A model generated the notes under the pieces. The model did not search any database and had not been told where the DNA came from. It saw only the letters and a program-made list of their open reading frames with translations. A stretch of DNA of 64,000 nt from Clostridia bacterium (GTDB taxonomy: Bacteria; Bacillota; Clostridia; Oscillospirales; CAG-272), in assembly GCA_017408585.1 (NCBI GenBank), contig JAFQUJ010000004.1:12662-76661 (forward strand), given 5' to 3'. A program made the translations under genes and the position numbers. Numbering within the stretch: the first letter of the stretch is position 1; each line of letters starts with the position of its first letter. Below, in pieces: positions 1,036 through 23,557 of the stretch.

Positions 1036-1064
1036 TTGACACTTATTAATAAATATTATATAAT
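1036..1064 (+). promoter_or_regulatory. sigma-A-type promoter far upstream of dnaA
   Basis: TTGACA 1036-1041, 17-nt spacer, TATAAT 1059-1064. A DnaA-box-like AGTGGAAAA lies at 1024-1032 just upstream. Confidence 0.7.
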
Positions 1065-1112
1065 AATACTAGATTAGTGTTTTTACACGCACACGCGCGA
1101 CCGAGGAGCCTT

Positions 1113-1366: not shown

Positions 1367-1407
1367 TTTCTTTTTTGGTAGCTTTTTTCTTTTCTTAAAG
1401 AAAAAAG
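1367..1407 (+). repeat. Y-Y-R triad element (forward), 27 nt upstream of the dnaA ATG
   Basis: TTTCTTTTTT-ggtag-CTTTTTTCTTTT-ctt-AAAGAAAAAAG. Segment 2 is the inverted repeat of segment 3 and segment 1 is the mirror repeat of segment 2. Confidence 0.85.
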
Positions 1408-1433
1408 TACAATAATCACAAAGGAGAGAAAGC

Positions 1434-2816
1434 ATGCCTAATTTAACTAACATTTGGATACCGATATCAGAGATATTGAAGTCCCACCATCACGACACAG
1501 CATATAATTTATGGTTCAGCGATATGGAATTAGTATCGCTCACCTCAAAGGAAGCAATGTTCACCACAACTCAAAATGCGAAAAGAGATGTTCTATTAGA
1601 CATTTTTGCGGACGAGCTGGCAGATGCAACATTTCAGGTAGTGGGATTTAGACCCAGAATAATCGTTATTTCGACAGAGAACGAGGAAATAGACCTATCA
1701 GCACCAAAAATCGAAAGATTCGAGGAAATAGAGCGTGGAGAGGCTACAAGCACAGACGACATTGTAATGCCTGAGGATTATCGCAGTGATTACACCTTTG
1801 ACAACTTCGTGGTTGGCGCATCAAACGAGTTCGCATATGCTGCGGCAAGGGCAGTTTCCGAAAAGGACTTTAACGATCCACAAACTCTTCGTACAAACGC
1901 ATACAATCCTCTATTCATATATGGCCCGTCGGGAGTTGGAAAAACGCACCTTCTTTATGCGATAACAAACAAGCTTGCAAAGCGTTATCCAAAAAAGAAG
2001 ATTGTATATATCAAGGGCGAGGAATTCACCAATCAGCTGGTTGACGCAATAAGAAACAAAACAACCGTTGAGTTTAGAGAAAAATTCCGTTCAGTTGATA
2101 TTCTCCTAATCGACGATATTCAGTTCGTTGCAGGACGCGAGGCTACACAGCTCGAGGTTTTCAATACCTTTAATGCAATCTATGAGGAGCGAAAGCAAAT
2201 CATTCTCACCTCTGACCGTCCACCAAACGAGATTAAAACACTTGAGGAGCGTCTGAGAACAAGATTTTTGAGTGGACTTCTAGCCGATGTTTCGTTGCCG
2301 GATTTCGATTTAAGGCTCGCAATCCTTCAACAAAAGGCAAAGCAGAACAACATTTACCTATCAACAGAAATTCTAAGATACATAGCAGAGAATATCACAT
2401 CGTCAATTCGTCAAATTGAGGGCATTATTAAGCGTCTTGGCGCTATCAAGTTCCTTCAAGGCGGAGAGCTGACGCTCGAAAGAGTTAAGGAGTCAATCAA
2501 GGACTATATCGCTGTCAAGGGCGATGACTCCAAAAAATTCGAGGAAATTCTAATCGCTGTTTCAACTAAGTACGGAATTTCTCGCGAGGATATTCTTTCA
2601 AATAAGCGTAACAAGGAAATAGTGATGGCTCGTCATATTTGCGTCTATATCGCAAGAGAAATCACTTCACTCTCCCAAGCTCAAATAGCTAAGATACTTA
2701 ATCGCGATAGGTCAACTCTCGTTTCTAGCGAAAAGGTCGTTAAGGACCGTATGGCTGATGACGCAGACTTCGCATTCGATATTCGTGAGCTAATTCGTTC
2801 CTTAACTCAACAGTAG
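1434..2816 (+). CDS. dnaA: chromosomal replication initiator DnaA
   Basis: 460 aa. Walker A GPSGVGKTHL, Walker B LLIDDIQF, C-terminal DnaA-box-binding HTH (ARHICVYIAREITSLSQAQIAKILNRDRSTL). RBS aaaggagag. Confidence 0.97.
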   Translation: MPNLTNIWIPISEILKSHHHDTAYNLWFSDMELVSLTSKEAMFTTTQNAKRDVLLDIFADELADATFQVVGFRPRIIVISTENEEIDLSAPKIERFEEIERGEATSTDDIVMPEDYRSDYTFDNFVVGASNEFAYAAARAVSEKDFNDPQTLRTNAYNPLFIYGPSGVGKTHLLYAITNKLAKRYPKKKIVYIKGEEFTNQLVDAIRNKTTVEFREKFRSVDILLIDDIQFVAGREATQLEVFNTFNAIYEERKQIILTSDRPPNEIKTLEERLRTRFLSGLLADVSLPDFDLRLAILQQKAKQNNIYLSTEILRYIAENITSSIRQIEGIIKRLGAIKFLQGGELTLERVKESIKDYIAVKGDDSKKFEEILIAVSTKYGISREDILSNKRNKEIVMARHICVYIAREITSLSQAQIAKILNRDRSTLVSSEKVVKDRMADDADFAFDIRELIRSLTQQ

Positions 2817-2826
2817 GGTTTCTTTA

Positions 2827-2867
2827 CTTTTTCTTTAGCACAAAGAAAAAGTAAAACAAAAAGAAAG
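2827..2867 (-). repeat. Y-Y-R triad element in reverse orientation, just downstream of dnaA
   Basis: Same 41-nt sequence as 1115-1155. Confidence 0.8.
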
Positions 2868-2974
2868 CACACGAGGGAAAATAATTTAAAAATATTCCTT
2901 ATTTAGCCTAAAATAATAAAGTAAAGTGAACAATATTGCTTCGTAGGTTTTATTAAATTAAGCCAAATAAACTC

Positions 2975-3062
2975 GGATTATACCTCTGGTGGTGAACTGA
3001 TTAAATCGAAATTTGGCTGTCGAGCCACCTCGACCGGATTATGCCCACGGTGGCGTCCCCGC
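2975..3062. repeat. variant GC-hairpin module
   Basis: …ctggtggtgaactgattaaatcgaaatttggctgtcgagccacctcgaccgg… The hairpin is gtcgag-ccac-ctcgac where the other copies have ctcgac-ccgc-gtcgag (arms swapped, structure kept). Confidence 0.7.
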
Positions 3063-3119
3063 CTCTTTTTTTCTTGTTTTTTTCTTAATAAATATATACT
3101 GCTTAGTAGCAGTATTAGT

Positions 3120-3475
3120 AGGGGCGTTGGAAAAGTAGGAAAACTCCGATAAGACTTGAAAATAAAGGAAATTTGGGCAAGACTTATCAACACAGATATT
3201 GGAAAACCGAGTGGTTAAAATGTTGGAAATTCAAGTGGAAAACGGAGCATAAAAGCCCACAAATAATTCACAGTTGAAAACTTTTCCACGCCACAAGCTG
3301 AAAGCTCGCTTGTCAAAAGGGCTTTAAGCGATTGTGGAAAAGAGTGGAAAACAAGGTTATCAACAGGTTGAAAAGGAAAACTTATCCACTCAATATATGC
3401 TAACGCTTTTGATATACACTTCGTGCACGATATTCCGTTGGGACACAATACACAGATAAAAAATATTTTTATAGA
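3120..3475. promoter_or_regulatory. oriC: DnaA-box cluster plus AT-rich candidate unwinding region in the dnaA-dnaN spacer
   Basis: Near-consensus boxes (TTATCCACA): TTATCAACA 3182-3190 and 3355-3363, TTATCCACT 3380-3388, TTTTCCACG 3280-3288. Complements: TGTGGAAAA 3331-3339, AGTGGAAAA 3231-3239 and 3341-3349, plus several TTGGAAAA variants. AT-rich run cagataaaaaatatttttatag about 3451-3475. Confidence 0.8.
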
Positions 3476-3477
3476 AT

Positions 3478-3514
3478 AGTTTCTTTTGTTTTACTTTTCT
3501 TTTGCTTAAAGAAA
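3478..3514 (+). repeat. Y-Y-R triad element (forward), 33 nt upstream of the dnaN ATG
   Basis: TTTCTTTT-gtttta-CTTTTCTTTT-gctt-AAAGAAAAG. The long run is 4 in all three segments. Confidence 0.85.
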
Positions 3515-3546
3515 AGTAAAAAAATACAATATAAAAGGAGAAAAAA

Positions 3547-4695
3547 ATGGTAGTAATTTTTGACAGAGACACACTAATGAACGCGCTAACACCGGCACTA
3601 TACACGGTAGCGGGAAAGAACACGATGGCGACAATAGAGGGTGTACACCTAGTATGCACCGAGGACGGAAAATGCAAGATAGAAACACAGGATTTAGAGA
3701 AGGGCTTTAGAACCTCAATTATAGCAAATGTAGAGGAGGAGGGCGATGTAGTAATAAACGCCAACAAACTACTCCAAATCATGAAGGTAATGCCTGCAGG
3801 AAATGTCAAGGTAAGCGTTGACAGCAACTTTTCCACCAGAATTGAGTCCGGACTATCGCACTTTGACATTAAGGCGCTCCCTGGCGATCAATTTCCACCA
3901 TTGCCCGAGATTATTGGAGAGAGAGGCTTTTTGATATCGCAGAGTATGTTCCGCCGACTAGTAAACAGAATTTACTTTGCGATAGGACAAAACGACTCAC
4001 GCCCTGTATTCAATGGCGCATATTTCAAGATAACAAACGACCAGCTATTAATAGTAGCGTGTGACGGAAACAGACTGGCATACTGTGAAAAGAATGTACA
4101 GCTAGAAAACAGATGCCATGACGGAATGAGCTTGAATTTAAGATTTATCGTACCCGGAAAGACCTTAAGCGACATACTCAAAATGACGAAGGACACCGAC
4201 GAAACGATGGAGATAAGAATCAGCCGTCGATACATCATCTTCCATTTTGGCGCATATATGTTCTTCTCAAAGACGATAGATGCCGAATACATTGACTATA
4301 ACAGAATTTTGCCAAGCACACATAGAGTAGTAACATACCTTGACGCGCAATCACTCAGAGGCGCGCTTGAGCGTAGCTCACTAATTGTAGAGGACCGCCT
4401 AGCAGGAAGCATAAGAGCATATGTAAAATTCACCGTAGAGGGCAAGGAATTGCTTGTATCTACAACCAGTGCGAACGGAAATGTATTTGATACAATTCCG
4501 ATAACACACGAGGACGACGAGGGAATAGTAATCGGCTTCAACTGTAGATTTATGCTTGACGCACTCAAGGTTTGCGACGATTGCGAGCTAAAAATGTCCT
4601 ATAATAACCCACTCAAGGGAGTACTTATTGAGCCACAGGATTGCGAGGATGCGACATATAAGTACTTCGTTATGCCGATAAGAATGAATAATTAA
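3547..4695 (+). CDS. dnaN: DNA polymerase III beta sliding clamp
   Basis: 382 aa directly downstream of dnaA/oriC. Three-domain clamp-like sequence ending ...YKYFVMPIRMNN. RBS aaaaggagaa. Confidence 0.94.
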   Translation: MVVIFDRDTLMNALTPALYTVAGKNTMATIEGVHLVCTEDGKCKIETQDLEKGFRTSIIANVEEEGDVVINANKLLQIMKVMPAGNVKVSVDSNFSTRIESGLSHFDIKALPGDQFPPLPEIIGERGFLISQSMFRRLVNRIYFAIGQNDSRPVFNGAYFKITNDQLLIVACDGNRLAYCEKNVQLENRCHDGMSLNLRFIVPGKTLSDILKMTKDTDETMEIRISRRYIIFHFGAYMFFSKTIDAEYIDYNRILPSTHRVVTYLDAQSLRGALERSSLIVEDRLAGSIRAYVKFTVEGKELLVSTTSANGNVFDTIPITHEDDEGIVIGFNCRFMLDALKVCDDCELKMSYNNPLKGVLIEPQDCEDATYKYFVMPIRMNN

Positions 4696-4890
4696 CGCTT
4701 TGCGTTAATTATTCATTCTATGAATTGCAACTCAAGGTTGCATGAATAGCACTGCGTGCATGAATAGTTGCTACGCAACATGAATTGCCTGACGGCATTT
4801 AAGTTGTTGTAATTCAATTCATGACGCAAAGCGTCAATTCATGTGCCAAAGGCACAATTCATGACACGGAGAGTCAATTCATTGTAGGAG
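4681..4890. repeat. CATGAAT-linked hairpin array (dnaN 3' end to the four-helix-bundle gene)
   Basis: Starts with an 18-bp perfect inverted repeat at 4681-4719. Then tgcaac/gttgca, gcac/gtgc, gttgc/gcaac and tgcc/ggca hairpins joined by catgaat(t/a)g. Centre tttaagttgttgtaattcaattcatg. Then acgc/gcgt, tgcc/ggca and gac/gtc hairpins joined by caattcatg. Confidence 0.85.
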
Positions 4891-4895
4891 AAAAA

Positions 4896-5249
4896 ATGGG
4901 TAAAAATTTACTTATAGAATTATCAAAGCAATTTGCGATAGATATTATAAATCTATGTAATGAAAAAAAGGATTGTAAAAAAGGAAACTCTTTATTTAAT
5001 CAAATTTTACGAAGTGGAACATCGATTGGTGCAAATATTCATGAAGGAAATTATGGAAGTAGCAGAGCTGATTTTATAAACAAATTTCAAATAGCACTAA
5101 AAGAATGTTATGAAACAATATATTGGCTTGAAATTTTTAAAGAAACAAATCTTATTTCCGTTGACGATTTTGATGTTTTATATAAAAAATGCTGTAAAAT
5201 TAGAACCCTTTTAATTTCTTCATTAAAAACATTAAAGAAAAATAGTTAG
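4896..5249 (+). CDS. four-helix-bundle protein (23S rRNA intervening-sequence protein / Avd-like family)
   Basis: The ORF 4821.. is trimmed to MGKNLL at 4896 (RBS gtaggag); the upstream part is hairpin-repeat sequence. Motifs LRSGTSIGANIHEG and ...ALKECYETIYWLEI match the S23-IVS four-helix-bundle family. Visibly much more AT-rich than the flanking genes. Confidence 0.7.
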   Translation: MGKNLLIELSKQFAIDIINLCNEKKDCKKGNSLFNQILRSGTSIGANIHEGNYGSSRADFINKFQIALKECYETIYWLEIFKETNLISVDDFDVLYKKCCKIRTLLISSLKTLKKNS

Positions 5250-5267
5250 ATTTATTTCATAGTATAG

Positions 5268-5309
5268 TTTCTTTTTTGGTAGCTTTTTTCTTTTGCTTAA
5301 AGAAAAAAG
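5268..5309 (+). repeat. Y-Y-R triad element (forward), 10 nt upstream of the recF ATG
   Basis: TTTCTTTTTT-ggtag-CTTTTTTCTTTT-gctt-AAAGAAAAAAG. Part of a roughly 60-nt repeat (tttatttcatagtatag…) shared with the 1350-1410 and 17338-17399 copies. Confidence 0.85.
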
Positions 5310-5318
5310 TACGATAAT

Positions 5319-6410
5319 ATGATTATAAAAAATATAGAATTAACCTGCTTTCGGAGCATAGAGGGGCGGAAGATAGAATTTACGCCGACGGTCAATGTAA
5401 TACATGGCAGAAATGCTCAAGGAAAGACGAACATAATCGAGGCAATATACCTATTTGCGAGGGGGCGAAGCTTTCGTGCGTTTAGGGACAAGGAAATGAT
5501 TATGTTTGACAAGAGCGCGGGCTACGCCTTACTTGAATTTTCAAAGGGTGAGCAGAGCTCGAGGCTAGGAGTACAGCTCAGCCGAAGTGCACCGAAGGCA
5601 TTTTACAAGAATGGCAACAGGGTTGCCAAGACATCTGAGATAATAGGCGAGTTTAGGGCGGTGCTATTTTGCCCATCTCACCTAGGAATAATAAGTGACT
5701 CTCCATCGGTTAGACGAAATTTTCTTGATGTAGCGATAAGCCAGCTAAAGCCCGTGTATATCAAGATGCTATCAAGATATAACGAGGTAGTTTCGGCAAG
5801 AAACGCAATACTCAAAATGGACGAGGCTGAGAGGGCGCAATATCGCGACATGATTGACTTTTATTCAAGCGAGCTAGCGGTATTGTGCGCAGATATAGCC
5901 GATGTACGAAACGAGTATGTCAAGAAGCTAGACTACTGGGTCAAGCAATTTTTCGAGCAAATGACAGATGGCAGAGAAATTCCAAAAATCAGCTATGAAA
6001 CGAACGCATCAAGCGAGGATTTCGAGTCAAGAGAGAGCCTAAAAAACAAGTATGGCAGACTTTTGACGGAAAATTTGGAGCGAGAAATGCGATACGGGGC
6101 GACAATATTTGGAATACACAAGGACGACCTAAAAATCGAGATTAACGGGCGTGAGGCAAGATTTTTCGCATCACAAGGACAGCAACGCTCGCTTGCATTA
6201 GCCATGAAAATGGCGGAGGGCGAGATATCGAGGGAGCACACAGGCGAGTATCCCGTGTTCCTGCTTGACGATGTGCTATCCGAGCTTGACGAGCAAAGGC
6301 GAAGATATGTTTTATCGAACATTAACGACCGACAGGTGATTATCACCTCGTGCGAAACATCGTTCTTTGCAGAGGAAGAAACGAATTTTATTCCAATAAA
6401 CAATGCGTAG
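5319..6410 (+). CDS. recF: DNA replication/repair protein RecF
   Basis: 363 aa. Walker A GRNAQGKTN, ABC signature SQGQQRSLALA, Walker B FLLDDVLSELD. Canonical position after dnaN. Confidence 0.95.
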   Translation: MIIKNIELTCFRSIEGRKIEFTPTVNVIHGRNAQGKTNIIEAIYLFARGRSFRAFRDKEMIMFDKSAGYALLEFSKGEQSSRLGVQLSRSAPKAFYKNGNRVAKTSEIIGEFRAVLFCPSHLGIISDSPSVRRNFLDVAISQLKPVYIKMLSRYNEVVSARNAILKMDEAERAQYRDMIDFYSSELAVLCADIADVRNEYVKKLDYWVKQFFEQMTDGREIPKISYETNASSEDFESRESLKNKYGRLLTENLEREMRYGATIFGIHKDDLKIEINGREARFFASQGQQRSLALAMKMAEGEISREHTGEYPVFLLDDVLSELDEQRRRYVLSNINDRQVIITSCETSFFAEEETNFIPINNA

Positions 6411-6670
6411 AGTGCTACGCAAGTGCGGACCGGGGACGCCCCCGGAGGCGAACTGATTAAATCGAAATTTGGCTCTCGACCCGCGTCGAGTGAGGAATGA
6501 ATTGTGCCTTTGGCACATGAATTGCAACTGCGTTGCATGAATTGAACGCAAGCGTTCATGATTTGCTCCTACGGAGCATTAATGCATACAAGGTGTGCAA
6601 TTCATGACACAGGGTGTCAATTAATGGCGTTAGCCAATTCACGCCCACAGGGCTATTCATTCCAAAGGAT
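6405..6670. repeat. composite repeat: GC-hairpin module plus CATGAAT-linked hairpin array (recF-remB spacer)
   Basis: Stop-spanning hairpin gcgtag-agtg-ctacgc. Module gcggaccggggacgcccccggaggcgaac…aaatcgaaatttggctctcgacccgcgtcgag. Then seven or eight small hairpins with catgaatt / caattcatg linkers. Near-identical copies at 54461-54640, and inverted at 28640-28797 and 25799-25925. Confidence 0.9.
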
Positions 6671-6680
6671 AATATATAAA

Positions 6681-6923
6681 ATGTATATACATATAGGAAG
6701 CAATAAAAGTGTAAGGGCGTGCGATATTGTGGCTGTTTTCGACCTAGATACAGCGACGGTGTCGGTGCATACGAGAAGCTTTTTATCAACAGCTCAAAGA
6801 GAGGGCAGAGTTAAGGCGCTTGGCACAGATTTGCCAAAATCATTCATTATTATGAAGGATAATACAATCTATCTTAGCCCATTTAATACAGCAACAATCT
6901 CAAAGGACATACTTTTTCTTTAA
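6681..6923 (+). CDS. remB: DUF370 / RemB-like small protein
   Basis: The ORF 6558.. is trimmed to MYIHIGSNKSV at 6681; the upstream part is repeat sequence. About 80 aa in the conserved recF-(yaaB/remB)-gyrB position. The last codons and the stop lie inside a triad repeat. Confidence 0.72.
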   Translation: MYIHIGSNKSVRACDIVAVFDLDTATVSVHTRSFLSTAQREGRVKALGTDLPKSFIIMKDNTIYLSPFNTATISKDILFL

Positions 6924-6950
6924 GCAAAAGAAAAAGTATGCAAAAATAAG
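6912..6950 (-). repeat. Y-Y-R triad element in reverse orientation (degenerate mirror arm) overlapping the remB stop
   Basis: CTTTTTCTTT-aagc-AAAAGAAAAAG-tatgc-AAAAATAAG. Confidence 0.65.
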
Positions 6951-7150
6951 TGACACTCGAAATTTTAATTTCGCTAGTGGAAGTTATCCCCGAGAAAAGC
7001 GAGTGGGGGAAACTATGATAAAAAACCAATATCGTAATAATTGCGTGATTGAAGCAAGCAAAAGAAAAGTATGCAAAAATAAGTGACACTCGAAATTTTA
7101 ATTTCGCTAGTGGAAGTTATCCCCGAGAGAAACGAGTGGGGGAAACTATA
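6936..7150. repeat. two copies of an ~82-nt repeat spaced 133 nt apart, in the remB-gyrB spacer
   Basis: gtatgcaaaaataagtgacactcgaaattttaatttcgctagtggaagttatccccgaga(a/g)aa(g/a)cgagtgggggaaacta at 6936-7017 and 7069-7150. Contains the bulged hairpin cact-cgaaat-ttta-atttcg-(ct)-agtg. A partial third copy lies at 7424-7460. Confidence 0.85.
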
Positions 7151-7250
7151 TATAACTAAAATGTGATAAAAATGCGACAAGGCTCTCGTGCCTTGCAAAG
7201 TAGTCCGTTTTGTCCGTTTTGGTGTGATAAAATAACTAACAGAGCGATAG

Positions 7251-7372
7251 TTAAATGCGGACCGGGGACGCCCCCGGAGGCGAACTAATTAAATCGAAAT
7301 TTGGCTCTCGACCCGCGTCGAGTGCTCCTGCGGAGCGTTTGGACACCCACGGAGGCGAACCAATTAAATGGT
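7251..7372. repeat. GC-hairpin module (one full copy plus one partial)
   Basis: aaatgcggaccggggacgcccccggaggcgaactaattaaatcgaaatttggctctcgacccgcgtcgagtg, then …cccacggaggcgaaccaattaaatgg. Confidence 0.85.
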
Positions 7373-7385
7373 TTTCATAGTAAGA

Positions 7386-7411
7386 TTTCTTTTTTGGTAG
7401 CTTTTTTCTTT
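7386..7411 (+). repeat. truncated Y-Y-R triad element (purine arm missing) upstream of gyrB
   Basis: TTTCTTTTTT-ggtag-CTTTTTTCTTT followed by unrelated sequence. Confidence 0.7.
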
Positions 7412-7450
7412 GGAGAAATGCTTTCACACTCGAAATTTTAATTTCGTTAG

Positions 7451-9712
<2,262 letters not shown>

Positions 9713-9721
9713 TATATATAC

Positions 9722-9760
9722 TTTCTTTTTGATTTGCTTTTTCTTTTGTTAAAGAAAAAG
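9722..9760 (+). repeat. Y-Y-R triad element (forward), 26 nt upstream of the gyrA ATG
   Basis: TTTCTTTTT-gatttg-CTTTTTCTTTT-gtt-AAAGAAAAAG. The long run is 5 in all three segments. Confidence 0.85.
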
Positions 9761-9785
9761 TAAAAATAATTAGGAGAAACAAAAA

Positions 9786-12368
9786 ATGGCAGAAAACAAT
9801 CACAACAATGGTCTCGATTATGAAAATATCGAGCAAATGATAGTAAATCGCAACATTGAGTCAAGAGTCAAGGAAGCGTTTCTTGAATACTCAATGAGCG
9901 TAATTGTATCCCGTGCGTTGCCAGATGTACGCGACGGAATGAAGCCCGGTCAAAGAAGAGTTATGTACGCTATGTACGAGGACAACCTCACCTCAGACAA
10001 GCCCTTTAGAAAATCGGCAACAACAGTTGGTAATGTGCTTGGTAGATACCATCCACACGGTGACCAAGCCGTATATGGAACAATGGTTCGTATGGCACAG
10101 CCCTTCTCACTTCGCCACCCCTTAGTTGACGGACACGGAAACTTCGGTAGCGTTGACGGAGACAGCGCAGCGGCTTACCGTTATACCGAGGCGAGAATGT
10201 CAAAGCTTGCAAACGAGCTTGTAGCCGACATTGAAAAGGATGTAGTAGATTTTGTTCCCAACTTTGACAACTCAAGAAAAGAGCCAACCGTGCTCCCATC
10301 AAGATTTCCTAATGTGCTTGTAAACGGAAGCGTTGGTATCGCGGTAGGTATGGCGACAAATATTCCACCTCACAATCTCGGCGAGGTAATTGATGGCACA
10401 ATCCATCTAATTGATAACCCCGAGGCAACGGTTGAGGAAATGATGGAATATGTAAAGGGCCCGGACTTCCCAACCTATGCAACAATATATGGCAAAAGAG
10501 GCATAATTGACGCCTATACAACAGGACGAGGCAGAGTCACCGTACGCTCAAAGGCAGAGTACGACGAGGAGCACCACAGAATTATCGTAACAGAAATTCC
10601 CTACATGGTAAATAAGAGTCAGCTAATCGAGAGAATGGCAGACCTTGTAAGAGATAAAAAGGTAGAGGGAATTACCAATATTGCCGACGAGAGTGGTCGT
10701 GCCGGAATGAGAATAGTAATCGAGTGCAGGCGTGATGCAAATCTTCAGGTAATACTCAATCAGCTATATAAGAATACACAGCTTCAAGACACTTGCGCCA
10801 TGAATATGCTCGTGCTTGTAAACGGAGAGCCAAAGACGCTGGGACTTCGTGAGATTTTAAGTGAGTATATCAAGTTTCAAATAGAGGTTGTAGAGAGAAG
10901 AACTCGCTTTGACCTAAGAAAAGCAGAGGCAGAGGCGCACATTTACGAGGGATATAAGATTGCAATCGACAATATCGACGAGGTAATCAATATCATTCGC
11001 TCAAGCGAGAGCCCCGCAACTGCAAAGGTAAGCCTACAAGAGAGGTTCTTGTTATCCGAAAAGCAGTCACAAGCTATTGTTGAAATGACCTTGGGCAAGC
11101 TCAGCGGAATGGAAAGACAAAAGATAGAGGACCGTCTTGAAAAGCTCCACGCAACAATTAAGGAGCTAACCGAAATCTTGGCAGACCCACAAAAAATTAA
11201 GGAAATCATTAAGAGTGAGCTTGCAGAAATCAAGAGAAAATACGCTGACGAGCGTCGCACAGAGATTGTCGATAGCGAGGACGAGATTGACCTTGAGGAC
11301 CTAATCGAGCGTCACGAATGTGTAATCACACTAACAAATTCGGGATATATCAAGAGAATACCGGCTGACACCTATGAGGCTCAGCACAGAGGCGGTAAGG
11401 GACTTATCGCAATGGGCACAAAGGAAGAGGACTTCATTGAAAATATCCTTGTTGCATCATCACACGCACACCTACTTATGTTTACCGATAATGGTAAGAT
11501 TTTCGTAAGAAAGGTTTATAGAATACCCGAAAGCTCAAGAACAGCTAAGGGCTCTAACCTAATCAACCTAATCGAGATTGAAAAGGGCGAAAAGGTTACT
11601 GCAATGGTAGCTCTTGACTCCTTCGAGGAGGACGAGTACCTCGTTATGATAACACGCAAGGGCGTAATTAAGCGCACACGCGTTATGGAATACGAGTATC
11701 AGCGTAAGGGTGGTAAGATTGCAATCAATCTCGACGAGGGCGACGAGCTAATCTTTGTTGCTCGCACCAAGGGCGATAGCGACATACTTATCGCATCAAG
11801 AAACGGTCAAGGCGTTCGCTTCAGCGAAAGCAAGGTATCAATAGTTGGTAGAACCGCAAGAGGCGTTCGTGGTATCGAGCTAAGAGGCGACGACGAGGTT
11901 TGCGGAGCAGTTATCGTTGACGAGAGCAAGTATCTACTCACCGTTACAGAAAACGGATTTGGAAAGCGTAGCTCATTCGATGACTTCGAGTCGAGAAATC
12001 GTGGAATATTCGGTGTTCGTGCGCATAACATTACCGATAAGACAGGCAGACTTGCAACAATCGGCGCAGTTACCGAGGACGAGGATATTATGGCAATCAC
12101 CGACGCAGGCGTTGTAATTAGAACTCATGTTGATGAAGTTCCTGTATATAATCGTAGTGCAAGCGGTGTTCGTGTAATGAGAATTGCCGAGGGCGCAAAG
12201 GTTGCAAAAATGACCTTCACATCAAGAGAAAATGAAGAGCCAAACGCAGAAAATGGCGAGGCTGAGGGCACTCCTGGCACAGAAAATGGCACACAGGGTG
12301 AGCCAAATGCACCACTAACCCCCGAGGACATTCCAACAGTCACCCCGGGCGCTGACGCAAACGAGTAA
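9786..12368 (+). CDS. gyrA: DNA gyrase subunit A
   Basis: 860 aa. The sequence [11 protein letters not shown] contains the catalytic Tyr region and HPHGDQAVY is QRDR-like. C-terminal beta-pinwheel repeats plus an acidic/low-complexity tail. Confidence 0.97.
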
Positions 12369-12371
12369 GAC

Positions 12372-12932
12372 ATGAAAAGGCTTATAGTTTTAATATTAAC
12401 TCTTGCACTTTTGGCAAGCACGCTCGTGCTTGCCTCGTGTGCAGGGCAAAGCGAGGACGAGGCAAAGCAAATCGCCGGCGATTTGATGGAGCGCGCATAT
12501 GTTTTAAACGAGGCTTATTACGGAAAAGGGCTACCCTGTGACGAGAATGAGCATGTTGAGGGCGATTATTACTATGTTAGTGAGAGCGCCCCAATCAGAG
12601 TTAGAAATGACTTGATAGTGGAAACTAAGGCTGTCTTTTCAAATGCGATTGCATCAAGCCTTATATCAGTCTATCTAGATGGCACATCTAATATGGGCGT
12701 GGTAGTGTTCGCACGATACATCACAGGCCCAAGTGGCTATTTGACAGTCTATAAGGACTACGAGAATGTAGTCGAAAATGTTACAAAATACGATACATCT
12801 ACCATTGAAATTACAAAAAACTCGAAAAATAAGATAATTTTCTCAATAAAAACCACCGATGGTGCAAAATCCGCCGAGGTTACTCTTATAAGAGAAAATG
12901 ATAGCTGGAAAATAAATTCGCCAACATACTAA
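12372..12932 (+). CDS. lipoprotein, unknown function
   Basis: Signal peptide with lipobox LVLASC. Starts 3 nt after the gyrA stop. No confident family. Confidence 0.65.
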   Translation: MKRLIVLILTLALLASTLVLASCAGQSEDEAKQIAGDLMERAYVLNEAYYGKGLPCDENEHVEGDYYYVSESAPIRVRNDLIVETKAVFSNAIASSLISVYLDGTSNMGVVVFARYITGPSGYLTVYKDYENVVENVTKYDTSTIEITKNSKNKIIFSIKTTDGAKSAEVTLIRENDSWKINSPTY

Positions 12933-13100
12933 TTTTAGTGCGGATAAGTGACAGTCCAAGAACACGAGCGAAAGCGATGTGCGATTGGGTATTGGAACTT
13001 ATGCAAGGGAGTGCGGAGCACGAGTCGCAGTGCGGAATGAAATTGCTTCGTTAGTGTGTTGCAATTTTGACTATGCAAAAACGGGATATGTTAAATATTT
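12933..13100. repeat. dispersed intergenic repeat (related to 31110-31190 and, inverted, to 17178-17228)
   Basis: gataagtgacagtccaagaacacgagc… is the reverse complement of 17178-17228. …gagtgcggag…aaattgcttcgt(t/g)ag(t/a)gtg… is shared with 31125-31175. Confidence 0.7.
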
Positions 13101-13113
13101 TTTCATAGTATGG

Positions 13114-13152
13114 TTTCTTTTTGTTTTACTTTTTCTTCTCCTAAAGAAAAAG
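13114..13152 (+). repeat. Y-Y-R triad element (forward), 38 nt upstream of the recA ATG
   Basis: TTTCTTTTT-gtttta-CTTTTTCTTC-tcct-AAAGAAAAAG. Confidence 0.8.
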
Positions 13153-13189
13153 TAAAAAAGCAAAGGAAGTAAAGGAAGTGAGGTTTAAT

Positions 13190-14308
13190 ATGGCAAAAAA
13201 GACGACAAAAAAGAATGCGCCAACAGAAGCGACAGCGCCAAGCGCTGAGCAGAAGAAAAAGGCGTTGGAAACTGCGCTTGCGCAGATAAGAAAGAACAAC
13301 GGTGAGGGCTCGATTATCCGTCTGGGCGACGCTCCCGATATAAAGATAAGCGCAGTATCAACAGGCTCGCTCACGCTTGACCTAGCGCTAGGAGTAGGCG
13401 GACTTCCAAAGGGAAGAATTATAGAAATTTACGGTCCTGAATCATCAGGAAAAACAACGATAGCACTTCACGCAATAGCCGAGAGCCAAAAGCAAGGCGG
13501 AACGGCGGCGTTCATCGACGCAGAGCACGCGCTCGACCCTGTGTACGCAAAGGCGATAGGCGTAAACACCGATGACCTCTTAGTTTCACAGCCCGACAAC
13601 GGTGAGCAGGCGCTCGAGATTGCCGAGGCGCTAATCAACTCGGGAGCTGTTGATATTATCGTAATTGACTCAGTTGCAGCACTTGTTCCACAACAGGAAA
13701 TTGAGGGTGGAATGGGCGATAGCCACATGGGCGTTCAAGCAAGACTTATGTCACAGGCGCTTCGTAAGCTCGCAGGAGCAATCAATAAGACAAACTGTAT
13801 TCTAATTTTCATTAACCAATTAAGAAGCAAGATTGGCGTAATGTACGGAAACCCCGAAACCACAACAGGTGGTAATGCGCTCAAATTCTACGCGTCCGTG
13901 CGTATAGATATAAGGAAGAGCGAAACGCTCAAAAACGGAAGCGACGCATATGGAAACCGTGTAAAAGCCAAGGTTGTAAAGAACAAGGTTGCCCCACCAT
14001 TTAGAATAGCAGAGTTCGACATTTTGTACGGCATAGGAATTTCTAAGTCAACAGAGGTAATCGACCTCGCAATCGAGCTGGGAATAGTTGAAAAGAGTGG
14101 CTCATTCTTCACCTATGGAGATACCAAAATTCAAGGCAAGGATAAGACAAGAGCCTACTTTGAGGCAAATCCCGAATTAATGGACGAGCTTGAGGCAAAA
14201 ATCAAAGCAAAGCTTGCAAACATGGACGATGGTGACGCTCCATCGGGCGACGATGACGATTTTGGAGTAGGCGAGGACTTTGACTTGTCAGATCTTGGTC
14301 TAGACTAA
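13190..14308 (+). CDS. recA: recombinase RecA
   Basis: Trimmed to MAKKTTKK at 13190 (RBS aaaggaagtgagg). Walker [11 protein letters not shown]1/L2 regions, acidic C-terminal tail. Confidence 0.97.
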
Positions 14309-14405
14309 TTTTAAAATGTCTAAAATCCATCAAGTGTAGTTGGACAGGGTTTTTCACAGGAACGCCCGAATTTTATCAAACATTATTCAGACTGATTTTA
14401 CAAAA

Positions 14406-14438
14406 TTTCTTTTTACCTTACTTTTTCAAAAGAAAAAG
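14406..14438 (+). repeat. Y-Y-R triad element (forward, shortened), 38 nt upstream of the recX ATG
   Basis: TTTCTTTTT-acctta-CTTTTTC-AAAAGAAAAAG. Confidence 0.7.
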
Positions 14439-14475
14439 CAAAGGTATATACAGCAAAGACAAATAAAGGAAGCTT

Positions 14476-15120
14476 ATGGAAAATAAAATTTACTATAAGA
14501 TAGAAAAAATCAAAAAAACGCCACAGGGTTACATTTTTTACATTACCTCTTCGCTTGGAACGAGCTTTGAAATGCCCGTTTCGCCCGATCAATATGATCG
14601 TTTCGATCTCGAGGAGGGAGAAATTATTGACGATGCACACTTCTTGAAGATAAGAGAGGAGCATCTCTTTGATAATGCGCGTCGTCACGCCTTTTCGATA
14701 CTTTCCTATGGCGAAAACAACAAAAAAATGCTTGCCACCAAGCTTCAAAGACAGGGCTTTTCAAGGGAGCTAAGCGAGAATGTAGCTCTCTACATGGAGC
14801 ATCGTGGCTACATTGACGAGAAAAAGCAAATGGGGCTTTTAATCGACACATACTTAAAGAAAAAGTTTGGCAGAATTAAGATTGTTGAGGAACTTATTTT
14901 AAAGGGCTATCGTCGTGACGAGGTGTCCGAGTATGTTAAGGGCGCGCTCACAGAGATAAATTTTGCCGAAAACTGTGCATGGATAATCGAGCACAAGTAT
15001 AATCCACTCCCAAAAGATCCAAACGAGATAAAGAAAATGATGACCGCACTCATGCGCTATGGCTATAACATAGGCGACATTAAGGAAGCGATTCGCATTT
15101 TCCAAGAGGGGCAGGCGTGA
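14476..15120 (+). CDS. recX: RecA regulator RecX
   Basis: 214 aa downstream of recA. Helical-repeat sequence (…ALYMEHRGYIDEKKQ…, …LMRYGYNIGDIKEAI) typical of RecX. Confidence 0.82.
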   Translation: MENKIYYKIEKIKKTPQGYIFYITSSLGTSFEMPVSPDQYDRFDLEEGEIIDDAHFLKIREEHLFDNARRHAFSILSYGENNKKMLATKLQRQGFSRELSENVALYMEHRGYIDEKKQMGLLIDTYLKKKFGRIKIVEELILKGYRRDEVSEYVKGALTEINFAENCAWIIEHKYNPLPKDPNEIKKMMTALMRYGYNIGDIKEAIRIFQEGQA

Positions 15121-16484
15121 TGGAAAACAGAGCACTAAGAATAGGCTTTGTGTCGCTTGGCTGTCCCAAAAATCAGCTCGACACAGAGGTCATGCTGGGT
15201 CATGTGGTAAACGCAGGCTACGAGGTTACCCCCGACGAAACGGAGGCGGACATTGTAATTATCAACACCTGCGCCTTTATCGGTGACGCCAAAAAGGAGT
15301 CAATTGACAACATTCTCGATATTGCATGGCTAAAGGAAAATAACAATCTAAGGGGAATTATCGTCACAGGGTGCTTGGCAGAGCGCTATCGTGACGAGGT
15401 TATGCGTGAGATGCCCGAGGTTGATGCTGTTCTCGGAACGGGAAGCATTCACAACATAATCGAGGCAATAAGGGCAGTAAGACGCAAGGAAAAATATTCG
15501 TCATTTGAGGACAAAAACGAGGTTGCGCTCGGTGGAGACAGAATAGTCACCACGGGCGACGCCATGGCATATTTGAAGATTGCCGAGGGCTGTGACAACC
15601 GTTGCACATATTGCGCCATTCCGTCAATTCGAGGCAAATTCCGCTCACGCCCCATGGACGATATCATAACTGAGGCAAGGGAGCTTGTCGAAGGCATTGG
15701 CATAAAGGAGCTTGTGGTTGTCGCACAGGATACAACTGCGTACGGAATAGACCTGTATGGCAGATATGCGCTCCCCGAGCTACTAAGACGCCTAGCGAAC
15801 GAAACCGATGTTGAATGGCTAAGAGTTTTGTATTGCTATCCCGATAAAATCACCGACGAGCTAATTCGTGAATTTAACGAAAACCCAAAGCTTGTCAAGT
15901 ACATTGATTTACCAATTCAGCACATAAGCTCGAAGATTTTAAAGCGCATGAATAGGCGTGGTGATGGCGCGCTCGTTCGTGATGTGATTTCTAAATTACG
16001 CACACACATCGAGGGCATTTCCATTCGCTCAACCGCTATCGTGGGCTTCCCCGGTGAAACAGACGAGGACTTCGAGGAGCTTTGCGCCTTTATAAAGGAA
16101 GCAAGATTTGAGCATTTTGGAGCGTTTACCTACTCACGCGAGGAGGGCACGCCTGCTCACGATTTTGCCGACCAAATAGATGACCAAATAAAGCAAGACA
16201 GATACGATATAATCATGGAGCATCAGCTCGGCATCGTCGAGGAAATGCAACAAAATAGAATAGGCGAAAAAATCAGCGTTCTAATCGAGGCATACGATCC
16301 TGTAAGCGAGGCATATTATGGCCATAGCGACAAGGACGCTCCCGATATCGACGGCAAGGTGTTTGTCCAAGCCAAAAAGGGAACACTTAGCGAGGGCGAT
16401 ATAGTTACGGTTGAGGTTATAGAGGCGCTGGAATACGACCTCATCGCTTCGGTCGTTGATGGCGGCGCTCTGCGTCGTTACTAA
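15120..16484 (+). CDS. rimO: ribosomal protein S12 methylthiotransferase RimO
   Basis: The ATG at 15120 overlaps the recX TGA. N-terminal MTTase domain (SLGCPKNQLDTE), radical SAM CxxxCxxC (CDNRCTYC), C-terminal TRAM. The last 9 codons are encoded by the first unit of the downstream tandem repeat. Confidence 0.88.
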   Translation: MENRALRIGFVSLGCPKNQLDTEVMLGHVVNAGYEVTPDETEADIVIINTCAFIGDAKKESIDNILDIAWLKENNNLRGIIVTGCLAERYRDEVMREMPEVDAVLGTGSIHNIIEAIRAVRRKEKYSSFEDKNEVALGGDRIVTTGDAMAYLKIAEGCDNRCTYCAIPSIRGKFRSRPMDDIITEARELVEGIGIKELVVVAQDTTAYGIDLYGRYALPELLRRLANETDVEWLRVLYCYPDKITDELIREFNENPKLVKYIDLPIQHISSKILKRMNRRGDGALVRDVISKLRTHIEGISIRSTAIVGFPGETDEDFEELCAFIKEARFEHFGAFTYSREEGTPAHDFADQIDDQIKQDRYDIIMEHQLGIVEEMQQNRIGEKISVLIEAYDPVSEAYYGHSDKDAPDIDGKVFVQAKKGTLSEGDIVTVEVIEALEYDLIASVVDGGALRRY

Positions 16485-17320
16485 CTACTCCCCCGACCTT
16501 AGCGTACACCCTAGTACGCTATCGCCCGTGGAAGTAGTAGAGCCTAGCACAGCTTGCCGTGAACGCCCGAAGTATAGGGGTTGATGCTAGCTAAATACTG
16601 CGTTACTAGCTTTTGCCACGACCTCAGCGTACGCCCTAGTACGCTATCGCCCGTGGCAAAATCAGAGCCTTGTCTTTAGCTGCCTGAACGCCCGAAGTGT
16701 AGGGGTTGATGGCGGCGCTCTGCGTCGTTACTAACTACTCCCCCGACCTTAGCGTACACCCTAGTACGCTATCGCCCGTGGAAGTAGTAGAGCCTTGTCT
16801 TTAGCTGCCTGAACGCCCGAAGTGTAGGGGTTGATGCTAGCTAAATACTGCGTTACTAGCTTTTGCCACGACCTTGACTATAAGAACCTGACCTACCTGT
16901 TCTTGCGAACAGCCTGCTTTGCAGATAGTGAAAATCAAATAGAATTTTCACGGTCAGAACCTTGTTACTCATTACATTCGTAATAAAAAAAGATAGCCTT
17001 CGCCCGTGGCAAAATCAGAGCCTTGTCTTTAGCTGCCTGAACGCCCGAAGTGTAGGGGTTGATGGCGGCGCTCTGCGTCGTAACTCGTGAACCCCAAGGC
17101 TCACAAATTCGCCTCGAGGACCCCGAGAGCTCGCCCTACGACCTGCGACTCACTTCGTTCGCTTGCATAAGCTCCACTAGCCAATCGCACTTCGCCTTTG
17201 GCTCGTGTTCTTGGACTGTCGCTTATCAGCGTACACCCTAGTACGCTATCGCCCGTGGAAGCAGTAGAGCCTAGCTGAGCTTGCCCTGAACGACCGAAGT
17301 GTAGGGGTTGGTGGCTAATT
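16456..17320. repeat. tandem array of six junction-type (ACCTT / ATCGCC) structured units of ~125 nt, two carrying insertions
   Basis: Units begin with GTTGATG(G/C) at 16456, 16580, 16705, 16830 and 17058, and GTTGGTGG at 17306. Each ends …gaacgcccgaagtgtagggg. Two alternating subtypes. Units 4 and 5 carry insertions of about 100-125 nt in place of or next to the inner hairpin. Confidence 0.9.
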
Positions 17321-17353
17321 TTCGTTGCTATCTAAATTTATTTCATAGCATAG

Positions 17354-17395
17354 TTTCTTTTTTGGTAGCTTTTTTCTTTTGCTTAAAGAAAAAAG
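17354..17395 (+). repeat. Y-Y-R triad element (forward), 22 nt upstream of the pgsA ATG
   Basis: Identical core to the recF copy. Confidence 0.85.
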
Positions 17396-23516: not shown

Positions 23517-23557
23517 TTTCTTTTTTGTTCACTTTTTTCTTTTTCCAAAGAAAAAAG
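23517..23557 (+). repeat. Y-Y-R triad element, plus-strand orientation, between two minus-strand genes
   Basis: TTTCTTTTTT-gttca-CTTTTTTCTTT-ttcc-AAAGAAAAAAG, 10 nt from the stop of 23568..25760. Confidence 0.8.

Follow-up and report, generated by a model that had tools for sequence, protein, structure and literature searches.

Short repeats, each made of two pyrimidine arms and one purine arm, lie before dnaA, dnaN, recF, gyrA, recA and other genes in a 64,000-nucleotide stretch of a genome from an uncultured gut Clostridia lineage, hereafter the window. They raise the question of what such an element is, and whether its three arms are held together by a triple helix, in RNA or in DNA.

A three-arm repeat at gene boundaries

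The family follows the formula T(a)-C-T(b), linker, C-T(b)-C-T(a), loop, A(a)-G-A(b)-G, over about 40 bases. Eleven copies in plus orientation and at least 5 in minus orientation were counted in the window. The exact n=6 hairpin pattern was matched 5 times with 0 expected, and a general regular expression for the triad 14 times, against 0 in 100 dinucleotide-preserving shuffles, which excludes chance as the source of these copies. All those named in the original prediction, the 11 forward copies and one reverse copy (36326-36364) before an M20 peptidase gene, were located, and their spacing of 10 to 38 nt between arm 3 and the start codon agreed with the distance from the ATG that it gave.

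On the plus strand, the copy in the dnaA 5′UTR (1367..1407) reads TTTCTTTTTT-ggtag-CTTTTTTCTTT-tctt-AAAGAAAAAAG, with a=3, b=6/6/6 over the three arms and the ATG 27 nt downstream. The copy before dnaN (3480..3521) has a=3, b=4/4/4 and a stem of 14 bp, TTTTA/TAAAA extension included; its core arm 3 lies 31 nt before the ATG. Before recF (5268..5309, b=6/6/6) the ATG is only 10 nt off and no Shine-Dalgarno (SD) sequence intervenes. Copies before gyrA (9722..9760) and recA (13114..13157, stem of 14 bp) both have b=5/5/5; the one before pgsA (17354..17395, b=6/6/6) has a unit of about 62 nt in common with the dnaA and recF copies. Two more forward copies with b=6/6/6 are antisense, 23517..23560 being located 11 nt past the stop of a minus-strand rhamnosidase-like gene and 36478..36519 directly past that of the minus-strand ORF 36519-37211. 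Three forward copies depart from the full triad form. The partial copy before recX (14406..14438) has TTTCTTTTT as arm 1 and a stem of merely CTTTTTC/GAAAAAG, which leaves TTTC of arm 1 partnerless. An imperfect copy at 45406..45441 (b=5/5/3) is the first of two that belong to a segment of about 94 nt duplicated in tandem, and another before a GDSL/SGNH hydrolase gene (45500..45538) has b=5/6/5, arm 1 being equal to arm 3 and not to arm 2.

On the minus strand, a copy inside the dnaA leader (1111..1154, b=5/5/5) precedes a tandem array of 2.7 units, each of 79 nt, with decayed copies. A second one, antisense to dnaA (2823..2866, b=5/5/5), is separated from the dnaA stop by 7 nt for the extended stem and 11 nt for the core. 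The copy at the end of a remA-like gene (6908..6950) has a decayed arm 1 in the window (AAAAATAAG), which is intact in two same-species strains. The copy before the M20 gene (36326..36364, b=4/4/4) is sense to this minus-strand gene, with the ATG 27 nt away. A decayed copy was found at 38439-38458, and one with b=4/4/4 (53417..53455) upstream of a TTGACA hexamer and a minus-strand tRNA-Thr gene. The reverse copies 1111-1154, 2823-2866 and 53417-53455, and the decayed ones at 6908-6950 and 38439-38458, had been missed earlier. The M20, GDSL, recA, recX and pgsA genes were confirmed by Pfam.

A match of T over A and C over G at every position had been claimed. It spans a+1+b positions and stops short of the stem's final G-C pair; opposite this pair, the first linker base after arm 1 is a G in 84/92 types. 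The stem is often 3-5 bp longer than the pyrimidine/purine core, in which case 1-2 nt of linker are left free. Two classes of free linker were seen, 4-6 nt without stem extension, or 0-2 nt with an extension of 3-5 bp. The latter combination corresponds to the deep-groove crossing distance of RNA pseudoknots. Compensatory changes support the stem extension, which leaves so little linker that the triplex may compete with it.

Covariation of the three arms

The concerted change of length in the three arms, on which the original prediction was built, holds well beyond the window. A census of the window and 22 related Clostridia loci gave 101 copies, from which 78 distinct types (window and 21 related loci, the same-species L001 being left out) were compared. 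Both run lengths were equal between arms 1 and 3 in 48/78 types (permutation mean 7.6), b1=b3 in 70/78 (mean 19.3) and a1=a3 in 51/78 (mean 26.2), values reached in 0/20000 permutations, although these counts are not independent events, because many copies are related by descent, and the signal in such low-complexity arms amounts to two run lengths. Where a and b were unequal (70 types), the mirror arrangement was seen in 48 and a direct-repeat-like one in none. A single genome (L036) may hold several classes, (2,4), (4,3) and (2,6), each consistent over the three arms. At orthologous sites, b differed across species but was equal in all three arms, with values of 6, 6, 6, 4, 5 and 5 before recF and of 6, 6, 5 and 7 before dnaA, where there was also one case of 5/4/5. 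That the constraint is internal to each element is seen from paired copies around one spacer, which differ in b.

An independent replicate consisted of 120 metagenome loci for which the b=6 hairpin was the sole criterion of choice. Of the 23 types having an upstream arm, 21 had b1=6, for a background frequency of 8.7%, and 16 had a1=a3 (permutation mean 7.3, observed value reached in 0/20000). The replicate also brought in two new classes, (4,6) and (5,6), as well as copies flanked by GC-rich sequence. We conclude that the three arms covary in the mirror, or parallel, sense required by a pyrimidine-motif triplex.

The reading we prefer, to which we give a probability of about 40%, is that of a REP-like dispersed repeat whose forward strand would be selected for an RNA intrastrand triplex acting in cis in 5′UTRs. 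Arms 2 and 3 would form an A/U-rich hairpin, the forward strand being the one under selection, and the 5′ pyrimidine arm 1 would lie in the major groove of this hairpin, parallel to the purine arm 3. The predicted triples are 8-12 consecutive U.A-U and one C+.G-C, and the geometry would be akin to that of loop 1 over stem 2 in an H-type pseudoknot.

Orientation, spread and the competing explanations

About 60% of copies are sense and 10-35 nt ahead of a start codon; about 40% of the intergenic copies are antisense to their neighbours, 5-25 nt past a stop codon, and keep the triad (47 sense vs 31 antisense, p=0.09). The 5′UTR element that had been proposed is thus recognisable in the many copies directly upstream of an RBS, but the antisense copies after stop codons indicate that the repeat is not simply a 5′UTR element, and a function in mRNA only fails to explain why the triad is maintained there. 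The hairpin end adjoins the start or stop codon (median 18-31 nt), and arm 1 faces a spacer of about 250 nt.

The presence of both orientations is also what a selfish or neutral DNA repeat would give, of REP or MITE type, an A/T-rich counterpart of the BoxC/PIT/TMECO repeats (see below) without designed role in host mRNA. The element would then need the triad in single-stranded DNA in order to be copied or gene-converted, or the triad would do no more than disturb replication and favour local instability, and gene boundaries would be places where insertions are tolerated. This explanation, which we consider rather unlikely, agrees with several features of the family. Loops and linkers are uniform per genome and differ among genomes, with several subfamilies coexisting in each (the GGTAG linker belongs to one subfamily only). 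In L014, an identical segment of about 85 nt, RBS included, is found upstream of both dnaA and dnaN. Decayed copies are present, inverted pairs surround spacers as in BIMEs, the taxonomic distribution is patchy, and dispersed intrastrand triplex motifs without known host function are documented. Relatives whose DnaA is 62-64% identical have no element near dnaA, so that it is dispensable for these genes. However, neither presence/absence polymorphism nor run-length change was seen among 11 same-species strains, a few Pfam scans revealed no transposase or RAYT gene, and no terminal inverted repeats or target duplications were recognised. Random insertion at tolerated sites does not predict that the hairpin end abuts start and stop codons, either. 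Finally, triad integrity is better in sense copies, a1=a3 being observed in 81% of them vs 48% of antisense ones (Fisher p=0.006), and the stem extensions of sense copies show an excess of forward-strand G.U over A.C pairs (15 vs 4).

Folding predictions brought up another possibility. RNAfold paired arm 1 with the SD region in five of five window copies tested, and of 33 copies with both an SD and a start codon no more than 45 nt away, 21 had 4 or more bases of arm 1 paired inside the SD window; the mean gain was -2.8 kcal/mol. The leader could then consist of two helices, the arm 2/3 hairpin (P2) being closed by an arm 1/SD helix (P1), and would act as a fourU-like translational repressor or thermometer, or as a processing stem, the mirror relation being incidental. 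A P1-like helix was also predicted between the reverse copy 2823-2866 and its flank. The prediction is unspecific, since A-U and G.U pairs let every U-rich tract bind a purine-rich RBS. Moreover, such a leader leaves b1=b3, a1=a3 and the missing direct-repeat arrangement unexplained, and an SD is missing from recF copies, as is an RBS partner from antisense ones, so that we find it improbable.

As to the nucleic acid involved, a perfect sigma-70-type promoter, TTGACA-17-TATAAT, is present at 1036..1064 on the plus strand, with equivalents in L014, L016, L017 and L025. It precedes both dnaA-leader copies of the window, which places them inside the transcript. Five dnaA-upstream copies are found 96-321 nt 3′ of (near-)perfect TTGACA-17/18-TATAAT promoters, and by this criterion the dnaA copy is within the 5′UTR in five species. 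Judging from these conserved promoters, the dnaA copies are transcribed. The interval from arm 3 to the start codon is too short to fit a promoter.

Types in which b2 and b3 disagree are informative, as Hoogsteen contact with the purine arm of the same strand predicts that arm 1 equals arm 3, and duplex H-DNA, or a purine-motif triplex on the opposite strand, that it equals arm 2. Arm 1 was equal to arm 3 in 8 of these 10 types and to arm 2 in 1, which corresponds to about 6 independent events at 5:1 (p=0.22). This favours a fold of the single strand and disfavours duplex H-DNA, which the original prediction had kept as an option. A duplex-DNA element, in which negative supercoiling near promoters or the origin would extrude H-DNA from the arm 1/2 mirror or a cruciform from the arm 2/3 inverted repeat and modulate transcription or replication, is very improbable: arms 1 and 2 do form a homopyrimidine mirror repeat with a spacer of 4-6 nt, and the oriC-like region that separates dnaA from dnaN does have copies on its flanks, but H-DNA needs the arm 1/2 mirror that most discordant types lack and gives arm 3 no reason, no promoter signal was found at a constant distance before arm 1 or after arm 3, and sense copies are located between promoter and RBS, not at promoters.

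Relation to known elements and possible role

The repeat had no Rfam match. The original prediction that no similar bacterial family was described is wrong, since dispersed bacterial intrastrand triplex motifs have been published as BoxC/PIT/TMECO and ITxF classes I-IV (Hoyne & Maher 2000; Holder et al. 2015, PMC4666352). Like ours, the BoxC/PIT/TMECO repeats are short, intergenic and dispersed, and one strand carries three successive blocks that can fold back twice into a triplex; they are present in many copies per genome, patchy among relatives and found as inverted pairs. In the ITxF scheme, the forward strand of the Clostridia repeat has the class IV order (Hoogsteen, pyrimidine, purine arm) and would be a pyrimidine-motif intrastrand triplex, its complement being class II. 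TMECO, from Proteobacteria, is a G/C-rich purine motif (C-G-G, class II), unlike the A/T-rich pyrimidine motif (T.A-T and one C+.G-C) of these gut Clostridia. TMECO, the best-studied analogue, showed no link to the orientation or function of genes, and neither a triplex in vivo nor promoter or terminator activity was found for it (PMC4666352), whereas the Clostridia repeat abuts start and stop codons. Published ITxF surveys deemed A/T-rich motifs nearer to chance and did not report arm-length covariation.

REP/BIME elements of Proteobacteria are likewise extragenic hairpin repeats of 20-40+ nt at gene boundaries, in both orientations and inverted pairs, with a genome-specific consensus, and REP hairpins can stabilise upstream mRNA. 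They are, however, GC-rich imperfect palindromes with a conserved 5′ GTAG, mobilised by RAYT, and have no third, mirror-related arm. The ENE/MALAT1/PAN elements share U.A-U major-groove triples interrupted by C+.G-C, and a proposed protection of RNA ends; the MALAT1 triple helix is of a length comparable to 8-12 triples. There, in eukaryotic and viral nuclear RNAs, a U-rich internal loop clamps a 3′ A-rich tail, whereas the 5′ U-rich arm of the Clostridia repeat would bind its own adjacent hairpin, on the 5′ side of bacterial cistrons. In H-type pseudoknots (SAM-II, preQ1-II, telomerase RNA), the pyrimidine strand that immediately precedes the 5′ strand of a helix likewise occupies the deep groove, in parallel with the purine strand, several base pairs being spanned by a connector of 1-2 nt. 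These are single-copy, ligand- or protein-associated structures with a second stem, and often bury the SD in the triplex; the Clostridia repeat, in contrast, is dispersed, has no stem 1 and leaves the SD outside. Finally, fourU thermometers and anti-SD leaders also have a U-run predicted to pair with the SD via A-U and G.U, but these are single-gene devices without mirror-related hairpin, and SD pairing of the Clostridia repeat is weak (about -3 kcal/mol) and unspecific.

Pyrimidine-type intrastrand triplexes form in RNA, and purine-type ones do not (PMC4666352). The fold of the Clostridia repeat most likely forms in RNA as well, in line with the promoters before the dnaA copies and with the better triads and the G.U excess of sense copies. 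Triplex-capable bacterial repeats being already known, what is new is this family and its arm-length evidence. In sense copies, the triple helix could strengthen the otherwise weak A/U hairpin that borders the cistron on its 5′ side, by which the mRNA may be protected or insulated; it could also keep arm 1 off the purine-rich SD region. Antisense copies after stops would give the neighbouring mRNA only a hairpin, or may be passengers of copying.

Copies of the triad and their position at gene boundaries

The start of the window corresponds to the chromosomal origin region, and carries dnaA (1434-2816), dnaN (3547-4695), a 23S-IVP-like gene (4821-5249), recF (5319-6410) and gyrA (9786-12368), together with a remA-like gene, gyrB, recA, recX, pgsA and the gene of a MiaB-like radical-SAM enzyme. 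DnaA-box-like sequences are present between dnaA and dnaN, with a cluster at about 3150-3400. The relatives of DnaA, at 93-39% identity, all belong to uncultured gut Clostridia, Eubacteriales or Oscillospiraceae MAGs, and the window's DnaA was also found on 22 metagenome contigs.

All copies listed in the original prediction were found at their sites. Their form is T(a)-C-T(b), linker, C-T(b)-C-T(a), loop, A(a)-G-A(b)-G, hereafter called a triad; arms are numbered 1 to 3 in that order, arms 2 and 3 make the hairpin, and run lengths carry the number of their arm (b1, a3). The b runs were also as announced, namely 6/6/6 at dnaA, recF, pgsA, 23517 and 36478, 5/5/5 at gyrA and recA, and 4/4/4 at dnaN. 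Among the plus-strand copies, however, the recX stem is short, and those at 45406 and 45500 are imperfect. The exact hairpin with b = 6 occurs 5 times in the window, against 0 expected, and a general triad pattern gave 14 matches, against 0 in 100 dinucleotide-preserving shuffles. Further copies, all on the minus strand, were found at 1111-1154, 2823-2866 and 53417-53455; two more, at 6908-6950 and 38439-38458, are decayed. Frequently, the stem runs 3-5 bp past the pyrimidine/purine core, and these extensions show compensatory changes (for example CTA/TAG, CCTA/TAGG, TCA/TGA, CCCC/GGGG).

With gene boundaries taken from simple ORF-based gene calls, the hairpin side of the triad nearly always adjoins a gene boundary (median 18-31 nt), and arm 1 points to the long side of the spacer (median about 250 nt). 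The 5′UTR placement first proposed agrees with 47 intergenic copies that are sense, the forward strand of the element running along the coding strand, and upstream of a start codon; it does not account for 31 others, which are antisense, with the hairpin 5-25 nt past a stop codon. Many spacers contain both, the antisense copy following the stop codon of the upstream gene and the sense copy preceding the start codon of the next. At two metagenome loci from other lineages (L105, L190), the triad adjoins, as judged by eye, an apparent antisense tRNA gene at its 3′ end. These two loci and the window copy upstream of tRNA-Thr (53417-53455) suggest that the element is also placed at the boundaries of tRNA genes.

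In sense copies, the gap between arm 3 and the start codon is too small for a promoter, so at least the hairpin is expected to be transcribed. Upstream of dnaA, a perfect TTGACA-17-TATAAT promoter is present on the plus strand at 1036-1064, and equivalent perfect or near-perfect TTGACA-17/18-TATAAT promoters were found upstream of dnaA in four species (loci L014, L016, L017 and L025), 96-321 nt upstream of arm 1. Such a location of the dnaA promoters places the whole element within the dnaA 5′UTR. This leader, of about 150-370 nt, has a GC-rich segment (gcgcgcg..ccgag) after the promoter that is conserved in five species. In the window it also contains a tandem array (1122-1335) of 2.7 units of 79 nt, with a decayed reverse triad (cactttttagcacaaggaaaaag...aaaaagaaag) in each.

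The element was considered as a promoter in itself, TATAGT and TAGAAT before arm 1 and TACAAT and TATAAT after arm 3 resembling -10 boxes, and this was rejected. Aligned base profiles of 99 copies gave no -10/-35 hexamer signal, either upstream of arm 1 or downstream of arm 3, and promoter-like matches showed no distance peak relative to the element. The TTG ending arm 1 was discarded as a -35 element, lying by inspection about 27 nt from any -10-like hexamer. An intrinsic terminator was discarded as well: on the forward strand the T-tract precedes the hairpin, and on the reverse strand an A-tract follows it. No copy of the element was among the predictions of a terminator scan.

The Rfam Gut-1 RNA motif gave three matches below its gathering score of 50, at 9515-9588 (plus strand), 4811-4884 (minus) and 6460-6548 (plus), with 38, 36 and 33 bits (E = 2e-4 to 4e-3). 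Two are intergenic, and the remaining one, at 4811-4884, covers the start of the 23S-IVP-like ORF (4821-5249), which is on the other strand; the three may represent a Gut-1-like repeat or sRNA that has diverged in the lineage. The segment 2975-3090, past the dnaA-distal triad and before the DnaA-box cluster, has two direct repeats (ggattatRcc..ggtggYg), and after them a hairpin of terminator-like appearance with long T-tracts (3049-3090). Either a small RNA or the real terminator of dnaA could be located there. Upstream of pgsA, about 870 nt (16485-17350) were devoid of ORFs >60 aa and of Rfam matches. Two direct repeats of about 70 nt (…tcggggYtttatcac…tccttttcatttttaYY) lie at 23380-23500 and directly precede arm 1 of the 23517 copy. 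Read on the minus strand, the whole stretch separates a rhamnosidase stop codon from a short unannotated ORF of about 120 aa (about 22870-23225, by eye) preceding a CotH gene. The CotH-kinase-domain genes are convergent paralogues of about 710 aa with InlB-type B-repeats (18407-20539, plus; 20729-22855, minus). Strains of the same species (loci L001-L009) diverge in the region 3-10 kb before dnaA. A TraG/TrwB-type coupling protein is common to all of them, with, beyond it, a PARG-like gene and a D12 methyltransferase in some, and PycTM, a radical-SAM gene and an MmeI-like methyltransferase in others; the region looks like a variable defence or mobile island.

Covariation of the three arms and predicted fold

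The dnaA regions (+/−10 kb) of 80 related genomes were fetched and searched for triads, and 101 were found in the window and 22 loci. Once the same-species locus was left out, 78 distinct triad sequences (types) remained for covariation counts. Arms were compared with run-length tables, since parallel pairing is not representable in covariance models or structure-pair counts. The b1 and b3 runs were equal in 70 of the 78 types, a1 and a3 in 51, and both pairs in 48. Permuting arm 1 among types gave means of 19.3, 26.2 and 7.6, respectively, and 0 of 20000 permutations reached the observed counts, which is not to be read as a probability because the types share descent. Where a differs from b (70 types), the arms are in mirror arrangement in 48 cases, and in the direct-repeat arrangement needed for Watson-Crick pairing of arm 1 with arm 3 in none.

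Run lengths vary both within and between genomes. One genome (L036) has classes (2,4), (4,3) and (2,6), each agreeing across the three arms. At orthologous sites upstream of recF, b is 6, 6, 6, 4, 5 and 5 between species, the arms staying equal; upstream of dnaA, it is 6, 6, 5, 7, and 5/4/5. Among 11 strains of the window's species no run-length change was found, the sole differences being a linker SNP and one decayed arm 1, so that searching for compensatory changes at the strain level was uninformative.

Because of the kinship among the first types, an independent metagenome sample was taken. A scan for the b = 6 hairpin only, arm 1 being left unconditioned, gave 120 loci, and the sample was made up of 23 distinct types in which the hairpin is preceded, at 2-10 nt, by a T(a)-C-T(b) tract. 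In 21 of these 23 types b1 was 6, the background for T6 runs in this context being 8.7%, and a1 equalled a3 in 16, compared to 7.3 as the permutation mean (0/20000). Classes (4,6) and (5,6), new linkers, and copies inside GC-rich flanks are added by this sample. Three-way covariation, which the original prediction had put forward to be checked by tabulation, is upheld in the 78 types, and its repetition in an independent sample makes it robust.

As the arms are mirror-related, T comes over A and C over G, as a parallel third strand requires. This had been claimed for every position, and the mirror relation stands, except at the last G-C pair of the stem, where the opposing base in arm 1 is G instead of C. 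The blocks follow the order of class IV intrastrand triplexes (Hoogsteen pyrimidine arm, Watson-Crick pyrimidine arm, purine arm), and their sizes (a+1+b = 6-12) lie within the limits of the ITxF search, set at 6-15 stem positions and about 1-6 nt per loop. Most copies have 3-7 nt in loop 2, and the linker is 4-6 nt in 85 of 92 types, with either 4-6 free bases and no stem extension, or 0-2 free bases and an extension of 3-5 bp. In pseudoknots, the chain crosses the deep groove of an A-form helix with one or two loop-1 bases; the short linker followed by an extension resembles this crossing, as a consistency argument only. The best structural reading of these sequences is that the forward strand would fold alone, arm 1 lying in the major groove along arm 3, as a class IV pyrimidine-motif intrastrand triplex. 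It is likely, with a probability that we put at about 0.7, that the forward strand is kept triplex-compatible.

RNA or DNA level, and alternative roles of arm 1

Two asymmetries give indirect evidence of action at the RNA level. Equality of a1 and a3 was found in 81% of sense copies versus 48% of antisense copies (p = 0.006), and the stem extensions of sense copies have 15 forward-strand G.U versus 4 A.C (p = 0.02), internal pairs being 4 versus 0. RNA allows intrastrand triplexes of the pyrimidine type, and not of the purine type (PMC4666352). The triad is nonetheless kept in the 40% of copies that are antisense, which counts against a function in RNA only. Our best guess, tentative as it is, would be an RNA-level 5′UTR module acting on stability or on access to the RBS.

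The main rival, which we hold somewhat less probable, would be a REP-like repeat, selfish or acting at the DNA level. Within one genome, the loops and linkers hardly vary, and they differ between genomes (tgctt and ttcc in the window, tcagc in L014, cgcg-type in L036-L038), and a genome has several subfamilies, each found in both positional classes. In L014, identical segments of about 85 nt, RBS included, precede dnaA and dnaN. Around dnaA, relatives with 62-64% DnaA identity lack the element, those with 55-58% have it, and at 41-43% it is found in a composite form. The pattern is one of REP-like turnover or gene conversion on top of conserved positions. Like REP/BIME, the triad is an extragenic imperfect palindrome, genome-specific, in many copies, in both orientations and in inverted pairs. 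The 5′ GTAG/GTGG signature of REPs was not found as a general feature, GGTAG being the linker of one subfamily only, and no RAYT (Y1 transposase) gene was detected among the 18 window proteins scanned.

Distant relatives harbour another dispersed repeat, rich in G/C (CACCTCATCC, a variable GC hairpin, then CCTTCTCC-loop-GGAGAAGG or variants), at several sites each in L065, L063, L058, L064, L069, L031, L033, L075 and L030, and sometimes in tandem units of about 71 nt. An A/T triad is fused upstream of it in L054, L064 and L065, and a closely similar T-rich hairpin in L063. It was considered as a G/C analogue of the triad and rejected, because its first motif is constant while the hairpin varies.

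A real rival for the role of arm 1 is pairing with the Shine-Dalgarno (SD) sequence. RNAfold always formed the hairpin of arms 2 and 3 (z-scores −3.0 to −4.0), and predicted arm 1 to pair with the purine-rich SD region in all 5 sense copies of the window. At least 4 arm-1 bases were paired within the SD window in 21 of the 33 copies in which SD and start codon both come within 45 nt (mean gain −2.8 kcal/mol), which is no evidence of selection, as any U-tract would pair in this way. Such predicted pairing could also join the triplex in a switch.

Duplex H-DNA would use the mirror repeat of arms 1 and 2, which do mirror each other in most copies, and predicts b1 = b2, as does a purine-motif triplex of the opposite strand. 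Against both stand the 10 types in which arm 2 differs from arm 3, since arm 1 equals arm 3 in 8 of them and arm 2 in 1. This contrast of 8:1 by type (p = 0.04) comes down to about 6 independent events, 5:1 (p = 0.22), and is therefore suggestive, not decisive. Antiparallel Watson-Crick pairing of C-T(b) in arm 1 with A(b)-G in arm 3 can account for b1 = b3, but leaves a1 = a3 and the lack of direct-repeat types unexplained, and would be a minor contributor. A reverse copy might also pair, through its A-rich arm, with the U-rich arm of the forward copy across the spacer; this is excluded as the source of covariation, b differing between the two copies of one spacer (5 vs 6, 5 vs 4 and 4 vs 6 in the window).

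Known triplex motifs and significance

No Rfam family, those of ENE/MALAT1-type triple helices (a U-rich internal loop between stems, plus an A-rich tract) included, was found on any copy at the gathering score, with only chance miRNA-like matches at E>1. A literature search for a bacterial 5′UTR RNA triple helix found nothing relevant. The view that no bacterial repeat family like this one had been described has to be abandoned, as dispersed intrastrand triplex motifs are known in bacteria under the names BoxC/PIT (Hoyne and Maher 2000; cf. PMC4666352) and TMECO, the latter characterised in the ITxF survey with its classes I-IV (Holder et al. 2015, PMC4666352). TMECO is a G/C-rich class II purine motif of Proteobacteria; triplex formation was shown in vitro and a link with local genome instability reported, but a triplex was not detected in vivo, nor was any promoter or terminator activity (PMC4666352). 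The BoxC/PIT/TMECO consensus, CCCTCNCCC-N3-6-GGGNGAGGG-N3-GGGNGAGGG, is a G/C-rich purine motif, and the survey took A/T-rich motifs as nearer to chance (PMC4666352). The arms of the Clostridia element, T/A-rich with a single C or G, do not match this consensus. To the known motifs, the Clostridia family adds arm-length covariation, placement at gene boundaries and compatibility with RNA.

Earlier surveys of bacterial intrastrand triplexes reported abundance, but neither a function nor evolutionary signs of a role for the third arm. In the Clostridia family, this arm tracks the purine arm over many run-length changes, in several lineages and in an independent sample, and arm covariation is comparative evidence of the sort that usually establishes RNA helices.

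Long RNA triple helices occur in eukaryotic and viral non-coding RNAs, and in single-copy riboswitch pseudoknots. We know of none that is a repeated modular part of bacterial mRNAs. In a fuller scenario, unlikely when all its parts are taken jointly, this lineage of gut Clostridia and other metagenomic lineages would use a triple helix of MALAT1 length (8-12 U.A-U and one C+.G-C) as a modular, copy-and-paste 5′UTR element of many cistrons. The U-rich arm would alternate between docking in the groove, with the RBS free and the 5′ end buried, and pairing with the SD, with the RBS masked, and pH, Mg2+ or a factor binding the triplex would then modulate mRNA stability or translation. Provided that the fold is real, the element would offer a simple 45-nt system, directly testable, for a natural bacterial triplex, as well as a possible new means of cistron control or insulation and a ready-made part for synthetic biology. 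Should it be no more than a selfish repeat, it would still show that a mobile or converting DNA element can have a triplex-compatible shape as its unit of selection.
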